Below are positions 2,031 through 5,481 of a DNA stretch of 18,256 bases, in pieces (the stretch's first letter is position 1; every line of letters begins with the position of its first letter). Location of the stretch: assembly GCA_040219255.1 (NCBI GenBank), contig JAVJSW010000024.1, forward strand, positions 1 to 18,256. The letters are read 5' to 3'. Made by a program: the position numbers and the translations under genes. The stretch is from Sumerlaeia bacterium. Lineage in GTDB: Bacteria; Sumerlaeota; Sumerlaeia; SLMS01; JAHLLQ01. A model generated the notes under the pieces. That model saw nothing but the letters and a program-made list of their open reading frames with translations, had not been told where the DNA came from and ran no database searches.

Positions 2031-2693
2031 TCAGGTTCTCCCTACCATAACAGCCTCAGCCTCCCGGATCATCTCCTCGACCATTTGTCTTTCGTACCGG
2101 ACGAAGTACACCAGGCCATTGATGTTGCAGGACGTGTAGAATTTCCCGGAATGCTGACGGCGAAGACAGAATACAATGCTGGGCGAAGGCACTTCAGGTT
2201 CTGCCCTGGAGAGCCTCCCCTGTAGATCGGCAATCCAGGGCCGCCTGACTCCTGGCAACCTCACCGTCGGGCCTACCAAAGCACGCAATGTGGGTGTGCC
2301 CACCCTCCCGTCCCCGCCGGCCAGAAGCCGGTCGTGGAAGCGCGTGTACCGGCTCAGGACCCCGGACCAATCGCCTTCTTGCCACGGATCGACGGGGTCG
2401 GTGGCCATGAACCGGAGAAATTCTTCGAGCGGGAATCCAGTCGGAATCCGGGGCGGTTCTGGCAGAACGAACTCCCCGTCCTCATCCCTCGGCCCACGGC
2501 GAAGATTTTCAAGTTCGTCAAGATAAGCGGTTCGCTGCTCTTCGGTCATTGCCCCGAGGATTCGCCGTGAAGGTTCAAAGCAGGCATTGTCCAAATACAG
2601 CAGGCTATGGGGCACGGCTGCCGACTCGTTGATCGGCGGGATGGAGTTCGCCTGGCAGTGCAACTCGAGGAGGTGTTCAGAATGTTTTTTCAT
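2031..2693 (-). CDS. Hypothetical protein, 220 aa (paralogue A of an unrecognised family)
   Basis: ATG at 2693 preceded by AAAGGA. Aligns without gaps to the 4810 gene at 67/119 identical residues over LELH..RLxxGG (hand count). Homology starts near 2693, not at the 2777 start of the ORF track. Confidence 0.8.
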   Translation of the reverse strand: MKKHSEHLLELHCQANSIPPINESAAVPHSLLYLDNACFEPSRRILGAMTEEQRTAYLDELENLRRGPRDEDGEFVLPEPPRIPTGFPLEEFLRFMATDPVDPWQEGDWSGVLSRYTRFHDRLLAGGDGRVGTPTLRALVGPTVRLPGVRRPWIADLQGRLSRAEPEVPSPSIVFCLRRQHSGKFYTSCNINGLVYFVRYERQMVEEMIREAEAVMVGRT

Positions 2694-2982
2694 CAGGATT
2701 CCTTTTGAGGTTATTGTGTTGGGGGGTCGGCCAAGGGACCGGTGATCGGGCGCAGCAAAGCGACTGTTCAGACGCATGGCTGCTTAGCGCGCCTGGCGAG
2801 GCGTTTCTTGGAAAGGCTCGCTTTTGATTGGTTTGGGGCCTAGAATCGGGCCAACTTTGGCGAGGAAGCCAAAAAAGAGAGATTTTGGTTCGGGTGCCTA
2901 AAAAAAGACTCGCATGCAAATCGGCGGTGTGAGAACGTAACGAGTGAAGCGTGGAAAGAGATGGAAAGGGCCATCTGGCTGA

Positions 2983-3031
2983 GTTTTGCAAAACGTTGCA
3001 AAACCCCATCGATTTTGAGGGGTTTTTCAAC
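2983..3031. repeat. Palindrome plus inverted repeat upstream of the att-like tRNA fragment (candidate recombinase arm/accessory-protein sites)
   Basis: GTTTTGCAAAAC perfect palindrome (2983-2994); GTTGCAAAACCCC (2995-3007) and GGGGTTTTTCAAC (3019-3031) form an inverted repeat, 12/13 matched. Confidence 0.5.
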
Positions 3032-3096
3032 AGATTCCACAAGACTCAGAGCGTTGCTTTGTTTCGCTTTACGGGGCTTTCCGCAGGCATTGTCGC

Positions 3097-3144
3097 GGAC
3101 TACGGATCAGAAGGTCGGGAGTTCGAATCTCTCTGGGCGTGCCA
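3097..3144 (+). other. 3' half of tRNA-Arg(ACG), att-like integration core (not a full tRNA)
   Basis: GGACTACGGATCAGAAGGTCGGGAGTTCGAATCTCTCTGGGCGTGCCA: anticodon loop CT-ACG-GA, T-arm GGGAG/TTCGAAT/CTCTC, 3' acceptor strand and CCA. No D-arm or 5' acceptor strand upstream. Confidence 0.9.
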
Positions 3145-3237
3145 TCTAAATCAAGCAATCACAGCGATTATCGAGAATGAATATAAGCGTCAGTTGAGCC
3201 ACGTCCCCGGCGGCCTTGCCATCGACCGTGCCGGGGC

Positions 3238-3515
3238 GTAGCGTCTCCACGAGCCTCGAGCCCGCTTGGCCTGGGGAAGCACCGTTTCGCTCGCGTTGGT
3301 CTTTGCGGATGTTGACTGCGGTCGAATCCTCAGCCGATTTCGGCCGCATCCTCGGTTGCAGCCCGAGCCGCCGCCCAGCGGTCCGGCAACCATTGAGCCA
3401 ATTGGCTTTGCGGCGAGTCCGGCAGTTCTGTGAAGAGAGCCTGCAGGTACTCGAGGGGGTTGGCGCCGGCCCGCGCGGCGCTCTCGATGAGCGTGAAGAA
3501 GGTCGCCGCAGCGGC
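3238..3515 (-). mobile_element. IS66 remnant: 3' end of tnpC plus right inverted repeat
   Basis: Minus frame ending at 3330 reads AAATFFTLIESAARAGANPLEYLQALFTELPDSPQSQLAQWLPDRW, the IS66 transposase C-terminal element. GTAGCGTCTCCACGAGCC at 3238 resembles the IRL GTAAACGTCCTACGAGCC. Confidence 0.8.
3330..3515 (-). pseudogene. tnpC: IS66 transposase TnpC, C-terminal fragment
   Basis: Not in the ORF track (no start codon). Matches the IS66 pattern A..YSLIESA..NG.NP..YL..L...LP......L..LLP..W; an in-frame TAG lies just upstream at 3546-3548. Confidence 0.8.
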
Positions 3516-3554
3516 AAGTCGGGCGCGGGCCCAGTGAACGCCGTGCTATCCTTC

Positions 3555-4317
3555 TCAAATCCGCACCCGCTCAATCTCATCCAGCGTCACCTTCTCCCCC
3601 GTGCGGTCGTAGAGCATCGTCGTGCGGGTGGATTCGTGGGCCGCGATGGCGGCCGCGTCTTCCAGGCGTCCGCCGTTGTCCATAAACGCCGTGATCCCAG
3701 TCGCCCGGAAGGTGTGGTTACCCACCGCCACGGCGATGCCGGCGTCCCCGGCCCGGCGACGGATCATGCGCCAGGCGGCTTCCCGCCCCAGGCGCCGCCC
3801 CGCTCGATGCCGAGGCCTTGCGAGCTGGGGATTGGGAGGGTGTGTCCGCCCCTTTCCGCGTAAACGCGGAACGACAAACGGGCCCCCACCCATCCCCAAT
3901 CCGCGTTCCTCGCGGTTCCAAACTCCCCATCGTCCCCCGCCAAGCACCCCCCCGCACCCCCAACCTCCGCGTCCCCCGCGCCTCTGCGGTGAAATTTCTT
4001 CCCACCAACCACTCACAAACTCCTCCCATTCCTCGACTTACCCGCCCCTAAGCCCCTCTTGTCTGACAAGTGCGACAAGTGTATTTTGTCTTTCTTGCTC
4101 CCGAAGCTCCACATGAGGGGACAAACGGCGCCGCCTGTGAGAGGCTCCCTCCAGTCGAACGCCAAGACCCAGGAGCCCCCGCGCCATGACCCTTCGCCAC
4201 CGCCAGAAACCGCCCCACCGCCGACCGCGCTCTTCGCCCGCCCAACCGTCTCGAAACCAGTCCCCGCCCACCTCGAAGGGTGGCCGCCAAACCTGGGAGA
4301 GCCTTGTCAGCGCTCAT
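3555..4317 (-). pseudogene. Tyrosine recombinase/integrase, degenerate
   Basis: Clear C-terminus at 3555-3800: AWRMIRRRA..GNHTFRATGITAFMDNGGRLEDAAAIAAHESTRTTMLYDR..VTLDEIERVRI, with H-x-x-R, H and catalytic Y. Weaker N-terminal traces in another frame from ATG 4317 (ALPGLAA..AVGRFLAV). The middle is low-complexity and lacks the first catalytic Arg box. Confidence 0.75.
3854..3994. repeat. Degenerate REP-like short palindromic repeats in a C-rich tract
   Basis: TTCCGCGTAAACGCGGAA hairpin (3854-3871), ATCCGCGTTCCTCGCGGTT (3899-3917) and CTCCGCGTCCCCCGCGCCTCTGCGGTGAAA (3965-3994). Confidence 0.4.
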
Positions 4318-4379
4318 AAAGGCAAATTGCCACCGAACCGGCTGATCGGGCTAACTCTAACAAATGTAAGAAAGAAGAA

Positions 4380-4427
4380 TGGCACGCCCAGAGAGTTTCG
4401 AACTCCCGACCTTCTGATCCGTAGTCC
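4380..4427 (-). other. Second 3' half of tRNA-Arg(ACG), att-like core, inverted relative to 3097-3144
   Basis: Minus strand GGACTACGGATCAGAAGGTCGGGAGTTCGAAACTCTCTGGGCGTGCCA; one T-loop mismatch to the first copy; no 5' tRNA half upstream. Confidence 0.9.
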
Positions 4428-4809
4428 AGAAAGTATGTACCGAAATGACGCCTAAAGTCAGTTGGGTCAACTTTGTACATGTTTATGTCCATGTTGGACT
4501 TTGTGTCAAAGCAGGTCTAGTTTTTCTCTATTTTGCAAATCCAAGAAAACTTTTCGCGAGGTGTTCTGAAGAAGGTCACTTAGAGCTTTCTCTCATGTGT
4601 GTCCTAGTTTCATGCCAGCAGAATCGTGGACCCAAAAATAGAAAACCTCTTTTTCGACTCTTCCCGCGGTGTCAACGATCACATCATTTGACCTCCCCAA
4701 GGGGAACTCTCTGGCAGGTGCTCCACGGTCGTGCGTCTCCGTGAAGAGGATCTGCCGGGTCATGTCTTTGGAGCCCACACTTTGACCAGACCTTGTTGAA
4801 AGGCTTTTG

Positions 4810-5481
4810 ATGACGAACAAATCCGACAATCCCCTCGAACTGCACTCCCGAGCGACTTCGATCCCGTCGACCGTTGAGTCGGCAAGCGAACCATTCAATC
4901 TCCTGTACTTGGAGAACCACGTATTCGGACCCCATCGGATCCGGTTTGGAATGTTACCGGCGAAGGAGCAGGCCGGCTATCTTGATAAACTTGCGCGTCT
5001 CCGCCTCGGGCCCAGGGACGCGGACGGTGAATTGATCCTGCCCAAGCCGCCTCGAGTCCCAACGGGCTATCCGCTGAAAGAATTCCTGCGGTTCATGGCC
5101 GTCGATCCAATGGACTCGCAGGAAGTCAACGAATGGTCCGAAGTACTCCCCAGGTACGCGCGCTTTCACAACCGATTGATGACCGGTGGTATCCCGGAGC
5201 CGGCAGACAGAAAGGCTATGACCGGGCCGATGCCGAGCCTGCCCGGCGTTATGCGTCCATTCGGCATCGATGCGCAGGGAAATTTCTGAAGAAAGGAGCC
5301 TGGAAGACCAGTGCCGAGTCCTGTGATGCATCTTCGCCGCGTGGCCAGCGGAGGTTTCTCCACGTCCTGCAACATCAATGATCTGGTGTATATTGTCTGG
5401 TACGAGAGGGCGCAGGCGGAGGAGATGATCCGGCAGGCGGCGGTTGTGCTGGATAGGGCGGCGAAGGGTGAGTCATCGTGA
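4810..5481 (+). pseudogene. Hypothetical protein paralogue B with in-frame TGA at 5287-5289
   Basis: ATG 4810 after GAAAGG. Homology to paralogue A continues in the same frame past the TGA (RKEPGRPVPSPVMHLRRVASGGFSTSCNINDLVYIVWYERAQAEEMIRQA) to a TGA at 5479-5481. Confidence 0.75.

Follow-up and report, generated by a model that had tools for sequence, protein, structure and literature searches.

Facing halves of tRNA-Arg(ACG) and an orphan gene pair in a Sumerlaeia contig: probable junctions of two related integrative elements

How do two halves of one tRNA gene come to face each other across little more than a kilobase, each with a leader of about 400 bp and a related gene behind it? The question is raised by positions 2031–5481 of contig JAVJSW010000024.1 of a Sumerlaeia bacterium (assembly GCA_040219255.1, G000 in our labels; 83 contigs, 5.35 Mb, 92% complete). 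The entire contig, 18,256 nt long, was analysed and is called here the window (C24), and labels such as C14, C3, C8 or C51 denote other contigs of the same assembly. An earlier reading of the letters made without database searches (the sequence-only reading) had described the locus as mirror-symmetric, with geneA, its leader and a tRNA 3' half on one side of a tyrosine recombinase, and a second half matching the first at 48/49 nt, a leader and geneB on the other. The symmetry and the match were found again as described, and our analysis points to the following answer: the two modules are probably attachment (att) junctions of two related integrative elements targeting tRNA-Arg(ACG), with a lambda-type integrase encoded on C14. 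One of the two islands would probably be current, with its integrase on that other contig, and the other a relic.

The tRNA halves, their flanks and the arm-type sites

The halves form an inverted repeat of 49 nt (3097–3145, plus strand, and 4379–4427, minus strand; 98% complementary, 48/49 nt matching) with a spacing of 1233 nt, and a second, weaker inverted pair (2045–2141 and 5356–5452, 77%) lies in the 3' ends of geneA and geneB. ARAGORN detected no tRNA gene in the window, and a search of positions 1–8000 against Rfam returned nothing but a chance match to a long non-coding RNA (E 0.71). The genome carries 53 tRNA genes, four of them tRNA-Arg, and the intact gene with which the fragments were to be compared, the sole intact tRNA-Arg(ACG), was located at C14:52654–52730. 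When the 48-nt arm was searched in the whole assembly with up to 3 mismatches, it appeared at three places, the C14 tRNA and the two window arms, and the reversed control pattern at none. The left att core (3097–3145, plus strand) is identical to the C14 tRNA over 48/48 nt, beginning 2 nt before the anticodon loop and continuing through the CCA and one further nucleotide; the right core (4379–4427, minus strand) corresponds to the same part of the tRNA with a single mismatch, in the T-loop, and is also present in a Logan contig of the public run X1 (4129–4612). Many tyrosine integrases cross over in the anticodon loop, and their att core extends from there to the tRNA 3' end. As the sequence-only reading had proposed, the two halves, which match the intact C14 tRNA from just before the loop to the CCA, have the form of att cores of this type. 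They are nearly identical while their surroundings have diverged because each half copies the host tRNA sequence, and homology between the two window modules ends at the tRNA 3' end. Both tRNA function and the recombination reaction would keep the core unchanged, while the adjoining element DNA is left to drift.

According to published work on such islands (PMC4383910), a tRNA gene (tDNA) with an integrase and a displaced 3' tDNA fragment is the signature of island ends, the attP sites of 2083 out of 3919 mapped islands are centred on the anticodon, and 125 arrays of islands in tandem are known. The present genome has the intact tDNA and, elsewhere, its cognate end fragments. A metagenome scan for the fragment-specific form of the core gave three loci, one of them a truncated tRNA at a contig start and the other two unrelated tRNA-Arg fragments, none of which carried the arm motif described below or a relative of geneA.

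The flanks beyond the CCA end differ between the two cores. On the left, a 38-nt flank beginning with TCTAAATCAAGC (3145–3182, plus strand; also given as TCTAAATC) reaches up to the end of an IS66-family insertion sequence (IS), by which it is cut at 3183/3184. Compared with the flank of the tRNA-Arg(CCG) gene on C3, it showed 34 identical positions in a gapped alignment of 39 columns, or 35/38 by manual reading in register, and that C3 site has a terminator, a convergent tRNA-Val 179 nt off and no integrase in the two open reading frames (ORFs) tested. The flank of tRNA-Arg(ACG) in the related genome G004, which has no integrase within the 1.5 kb examined, agrees with it at 17 of the first 22 nt, counted by eye. 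We read the left flank as native chromosome, so that in the left arm the 3' fragment would be followed by the original chromosomal flank, as at the end of an Islander-type island. The right arm has instead an element-type (P') flank: its CCA side (4349–4379, minus strand) is identical at 27/31 nt to the sequence that follows the intact C14 tRNA towards the integrase. The C14-type architecture (a short spacer, a terminator hairpin and tandem TTGCAAG sites) was also present after tRNA-Arg(ACG) in the related genomes G020 and G021, and synteny around this tRNA gene was not conserved among relatives.

A second shared signal was detected in the leader of the left module, where a tandem site TTGCAAAAC-G-TTGCAAAAC lies at 2986–3004 (plus strand), 93–111 nt 5' of the core. 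Exact TTGCAAAAC-N-TTGCAAAAC pairs occur at two places in the 5.35-Mb genome, this one and C14:52803–52821, where the form is TTGCAAAAC-T-TTGCAAAAC and the pair stands between the intact tRNA and the integrase; both have the same orientation relative to the tRNA sequence. In relatives, tandem 7–9-mers with a 10–11-nt period, such as GTTGCAAAAA-GTTGCAAA or GTTCAAAAAA-GTTCAAAA, were likewise found between tRNA and integrase. At 9 of the 11 integrase loci with an adjoining tRNA (described in the next section), a fixed pattern, a pair of 7-mers like TTGCAAA/TTCAAAA, was present at +51 to +74 nt after the tRNA, the remaining two consisting of one locus whose pair has a deviating base and one without a pair; as background, the tandem-pair pattern occurs 33 times in the whole of G000, both strands counted. 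The right module retains a degenerate version, TTGCAAAAT-A-GAGAAAAAC (4520–4538, minus strand), with one unit kept and one degenerate, at the same 93–111-nt offset as in leader A, and an identical 9-mer stands at positions 153–161 from the CCA end in both modules. Arm-type repeats common to the P and P' arms, as expected of a lambda-type att site, are thus present by sequence, and the simplest explanation of the tandem 9-mers is that a lambda-like integrase would bind them as arm-type sites, on P' in C14 and on P in the window. A search for the exact tandem 9-mer in genome contigs gave at least 118 stretches, and among the 80 that were scanned a tRNA within 400 nt was found in 2.

In addition to the tandem pairs, the P' arms of this integrase clade share a motif, GACTTACG or GACTTAGG, placed 12–25 nt after the CCA whatever the tRNA. 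It was seen within the first 25 nt after the tRNA at loci L009–L013, L022, L161, L162 and L164, and in the form GAGTTAGCC on C14 and in the right flank of the window. It may represent a further protein-binding site.

The integrase on C14 and the segment between the arms

The gene for a 395-aa tyrosine integrase lies 338 nt downstream of the C14 tRNA-Arg(ACG) and is encoded on the other strand (Pfam E 4.2e-10, 40.1 bits where the cut-off is 27.1; PHROG integrase, 8.5e-24), so that the tDNA that would be regenerated at integration is adjoined by an integrase, as in Islander islands. At E ≤ 1e-20 it was matched in 13 genomes out of 75 from the phylum, G000 being one of the 13. Among the 19 loci returned, 14 were scanned with ARAGORN, five weak or partial matches being left out, and a tRNA gene was found directly beside the 3' end of the integrase in 11 of the 14 (Arg-ACG, Arg-CCG, Arg-CCT three times, Lys three times, Gly, Asn and Pro), which identifies the group as a clade of tRNA-targeting integrases.

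A further integrase of this clade is encoded in G000 itself, on C51 (locus L168, 3418–4852), with 43% identity to that of C14. It is accompanied by tandem GTTGCAAG/GTTGCAAC sites of its own and by a tRNA-Pro(TGG)-like sequence of which the 5' half is missing and the 3' part remains; an intact tRNA-Pro(TGG) was not detected by ARAGORN anywhere in the assembly. The last 156 nt at this C51 site are common to the end of C77 and to the start of C52, an IS contig.

The far end of related islands was looked for in seven genomes, with the last 31 nt of the integrase-adjacent tRNA as the query. In G036, whose island sits at tRNA-Arg(CCT), a displaced fragment was found on another contig; it is not called as a tRNA by ARAGORN and starts 3 nt ahead of the anticodon loop. 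A tandem pair that belongs to this island, GTTCAAAAAA-GTTCAAAAT, stands 123 nt upstream of the fragment, giving the same layout of arm site and core as in the left module of the window. The gene at this far end is a convergent ORF of 328 aa, without similarity to geneA.

The sequence-only reading had placed a tyrosine recombinase at the centre of the window locus, a view that the analysis did not support. The ORF concerned (3555–4016, minus strand) covers only positions 100–167 of the 172 of the Phage_integrase profile, at 26.3 bits against a cut-off of 27.1, and Xer-type models of NCBIfam matched it far below their cut-offs; what is present is the C-terminal ~80 aa of an XerC/D-like recombinase (3555–3806, minus strand), a partial Pfam match and a non-functional remnant. 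Its close copies in the genome (five matches on four contigs) are all short fragments, and tblastn detected no similarity between it and the C14 integrase. The central recombinase is in this way a remnant of a different, fragmented multi-copy family, and the cognate enzyme is the one on C14. On its left lies the IS66-family remnant (3184–3545, minus strand), correctly recognised in the earlier reading, which comprises the terminal ~326 nt and the C-terminal end of the transposase (PF13817 on 3333–3545, minus strand; E 6.7e-8, 33 bits, the cut-off being 30) but nothing else of the IS; 14 other copies of 3184–3509 were found on 13 contigs, all starting at the same base and many of them at contig ends. 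On its right lies a dispersed repeat resembling a miniature inverted-repeat transposable element (MITE; 3900–4230), which was matched 63 times elsewhere, on 37 contigs. On C61 and C2, copies of this repeat have copies of the IS66 end directly beside them, and the repeat may be a preferred IS66 target. Judged by these matches, the centre between the arms is a junkyard without a working recombinase.

This content bears on whether the locus could be an invertible switch, in which the integrase would recombine the inverted 49-nt cores and so reverse the enclosed 1.2 kb. In favour are the inverted att cores, spaced by 1233 nt, and the presence of a cognate integrase in the same genome, but the segment is made of remnants and repeats, the recombinase that it encloses is a fragment rather than an intact gene, and a scan of 1900–5700, restricted to the sigma-70 consensus, found no promoter-like site. 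A flip would merely swap two non-coding flanks, and the other orientation was not seen in reads, which do not cover the left arm. We regard a switch as extremely improbable.

The same segment could also mark a false join in the assembly. If the left part (1 to ~3500) and the right part (~4130 to 18,256) came from different places or strains, the mirror arrangement would be an artefact, and the modules would still be att junctions. About 700 of the 950 nt in 3184–4128 match repeats elsewhere in the genome (the IS66 end, the integrase fragment and the MITE-like repeat, with the 14, 5 and 63 other matches given above), and the Logan contigs of the public runs X1–X3 leave 1800–3183 uncovered and reach 3184–4128 only through diverged repeat copies, a hole that by itself proves nothing. 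The exact pieces of run X1 begin only at 4129; from there on they reproduce 4129–4612 and 4660–5800, the right core, the flanks on either side of it and the in-frame TGA of geneB among them, one Logan contig being free of differences over 4129–4612 and another over 5149–5381. Both contig ends, moreover, are inverted IS copies with 141-nt graph overlaps to many contigs, typical of a fragmented metagenome-assembled genome (MAG). However, the repeat copies differ from the window versions by 3–20%, so a 141-mer graph can pass through them legitimately, positions 3801–3899 and 4231–4348 are unique in the genome, and the arms are diverged, unlike the perfect palindrome of hairpin artefacts. On balance, a wrong join seems unlikely.

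As for the contig ends themselves, positions 1–145 and 18,014–18,158 are inverted copies (98%) of the end of a multi-copy rve-type IS, the transposase of which is carried by C52 (2055 nt; rve_3, E 7e-14). In its layout, the 18-kb contig is bracketed like a composite transposon. With C24 ending in IS copies, no link from C24 to C14 could be obtained through the contig-end overlaps.

The orphan gene pair and its leaders

In the left module, geneA (2031–2693, minus strand) encodes an orphan protein of 220 aa and is transcribed away from the att core, being the first gene inside the island at its proposed attR end. Its paralogue geneB (4810–5481, plus strand) occupies a single frame with an in-frame TGA at 5287–5289, which aligns with a Ser codon of geneA. 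The two proteins share 53% amino acid identity over their full length; the sequence-only reading was right about a paralogous pair, and its figure of about 56% had been given for the core only. The pair showed dN 0.369 and dS 1.52, the latter near saturation, with dN/dS 0.24, and after the TGA of geneB the ratio was 0.29, from which it follows that the stop is recent and that geneB is probably a recent pseudogene. The C-terminal third of geneB beyond the TGA is well conserved (FSTSCNINDLVY...), and an independent Logan contig has the TGA too; the choice lies between a nonsense mutation of very recent date and a codon that is read through.

Leader A (2694–3096, 403 nt) would comprise the P arm of the att site and the upstream region of geneA, and leader B (4428–4809, 382 nt) a decayed P arm and the upstream region of geneB. 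The homology between them is weak: 211 identical positions in 429 aligned columns, and a global score of −23 against −57 ± 7 for 300 shuffles, the best of which reached −32 (z = 4.7). The similarity, noted as patchy from the letters, is in effect weak but non-random. That the modules are no recent duplication, also claimed there, agrees with a dS of about 1.5 and with leaders that are nearly randomised. No small ORF is conserved between the leaders, the frames being interrupted by stops. A 24-mer of leader B, TGTCAACGATCACATCATTTGACC (4670–4693), was found three more times in the genome (C8, C30 and C51), with repeats of GTTCAAAAGTGTGACC behind it in C8 and C51, and may mark the terminus of a further small mobile element or serve as another att site or operator.

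The searches for relatives of the two proteins returned almost nothing beyond the pair itself. No domain was matched in Pfam, NCBIfam, PHROGs or PADLOC, and no match was found in any of the 24 other genomes of the order. A word-based search with geneA over 5.8e9 clusters recovered only geneA itself among 881 candidates, and an exhaustive phmmer search of 1.84e9 (1.84 billion) representative proteins recovered geneA, two pieces of geneB and one protein of 1709 aa; the latter is highly repetitive, and its match (E 5.3e-4, 23% identity) was judged spurious, a product of repeat inflation. Longer fused forms of geneA/B were looked for and not found. Regarding structure, the ESM Atlas gave no usable match (its own model had a predicted local distance difference test (pLDDT) score of 0.36), AlphaFold2 run on the two-sequence alignment gave an unusable model (pLDDT 42.5), and a profile search of the PDB found no relative at E < 0.01, its best match (E 0.018) being judged noise. 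A role as excisionase or recombination directionality factor found no support: Pfam, NCBIfam, PHROG and PDB searches showed neither an Xis or helix-turn-helix type domain nor homology to directionality factors. Taken with the substitution rates, the pair is best described as real, lineage-restricted genes under purifying selection; our guess is that they are accessory or cargo genes and not part of the recombination machinery. That both elements kept the gene at the P-arm end is all that hints at a part in the life cycle.

In the sequence-only reading, the tRNA half, the leader and the gene together formed an old, self-contained functional unit of ~1.1 kb, with the orphan protein as its core component, for example a directionality or targeting factor. 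Two diverged copies have indeed kept order, orientation and spacing (the arm site at 93–111 nt, the leaders at 403 and 382 nt), the protein is under purifying selection, and the gene adjoins the P arm, where accessory recombination genes could lie. Against this, no third copy was found in the 24 other genomes of the order, among the 881 candidates of the word search or among the 1.84e9 representatives, and with the family limited to this pair in every database searched, neither a repeated deployment nor a core role has support. The sole related island end available, that of G036, has a different gene: what the modules share with related elements is the arm-type site and the core, not the gene, and a minimal element, cassette or switch is unsupported. 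The unit, besides, has no recombinase of its own, and no DNA-binding or Xis-like domain was detected in its protein. We consider such a unit quite improbable. A variant that combines two of these ideas, in which geneA/B would be an unseen accessory factor of the P-arm end (in control of excision or directionality, for instance) and the inverted cores would at the same time let the integrase flip or resolve the junction, is very doubtful.

Two other proteins of the window were annotated. The one encoded at 110–1903 (597 aa) would lie inside the proposed island, adjoining geneA, and shows a sub-threshold match (E 2.8e-4) to Peptidase_G2, an intramolecular-chaperone cleavage domain found in phage tailspikes. 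At the other side of the contig, 12,663–17,909 encodes a protein of 1748 aa in which BACON and matrixin (M10) domains were recognised; residues 876–1748, which match the same targets twice, show a long internal duplication, and a paralogue of 65% identity is encoded on C79.

How the locus may have arisen and what it resembles

The sequence-only reading had taken the modules for element ends, and this part of it is retained in the explanation that we favour, in which they are att junctions of two related elements at tRNA-Arg(ACG). The left module (geneA, a P arm with two TTGCAAAAC sites, a core of 47 nt and the native flank) would be the attR of an island, whose attL we infer to lie on C14, consisting of the tRNA, a P' arm with the same two arm sites and the integrase gene. 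In excision, a crossover in the anticodon loop would rejoin P and P' into attP and give the tRNA back its native flank. The right module would stem from a sister element and be an older relic in decay, attP-like in structure and of the sort expected at the joint of a tandem array (P arm, core and start of P'), and it bears signs of decay in its degenerate arm site, its one core mismatch and the in-frame TGA of geneB. Since islands in tandem yield direct repeats, the inverted order calls for an inversion or for a misjoined assembly. The former is plausible, as IS copies are numerous in this genome and an rve-type IS bounds C24 on either side, in inverted orientation. The mirror layout and the 1.2-kb middle would then reflect IS-driven rearrangement and not a designed structure.

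Several points weigh against this explanation. C14 and the window are separate contigs, so that attL/attR orientation and linkage are not readable, and no excision junction was observed in data that consist of Logan contigs only and leave the left arm uncovered. The argument from the native flank rests on moderate similarity to one relative and to the flank of a paralogous tRNA. The right module is no simple attR, a tandem-array joint followed by inversion being a conjecture, and its arm site is too degenerate to fit the tandem-pair pattern. Among the seven related genomes searched, a second copy (the displaced fragment) was found only in G036. Finally, there is no functional lead for geneA/B (AlphaFold2 pLDDT 42.5). 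With these points counted, we still hold it probable that the modules are att junctions of two related elements served by the C14 integrase.

On this explanation, an apparently exotic symmetric locus becomes a standard one, the scars of island ends at a tRNA gene. It also provides, for a little-studied integrase clade in a poorly sampled phylum, the target class (the anticodon loop of tRNAs), the core length and the arm-site motif with its spacing on both arms, and core and motif together can help in mapping islands whose two ends have been split between contigs, as happens in fragmented MAGs. An orphan gene pair under purifying selection at island ends is the genuine puzzle left over.

Compared with known systems, the locus shares with invertible DNA switches a pair of inverted repeats around a short segment with recombinase-like coding sequence, whereas here only a dead piece of a recombinase is present, neither a promoter nor alternative coding ends were found, and the repeats are tRNA-derived att cores. 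The likeness to tRNA-gene islands and prophages, as catalogued in Islander with anticodon-centred attP sites, is closer: there is an intact tRNA-Arg(ACG) with an adjoining tyrosine integrase, and the displaced fragments extend from the anticodon loop as far as the 3' end, the left one being identical to the tRNA. Different from those islands are the two fragments placed head to head on a contig without the tRNA, one of them with element-type flank on both sides (attP-like), and a linkage to the integrase that is putative. With tandem island arrays at one tDNA the locus has in common two related elements at a single tRNA and a junction made of P arm, core and P' arm, although known arrays are direct repeats and the second junction is here inverted and its integrase missing. 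Finally, in comparison with the att sites of heterobivalent, lambda-type integrases, no Xis or IHF sites were identified and the motif and its spacing are specific to a little-studied clade, whereas the basic design is the same: putative arm sites formed by tandem 9-mers of 10-nt period flank the core (+73 on P' and −93 to −111 on P), and they are conserved in kind across the integrase family.

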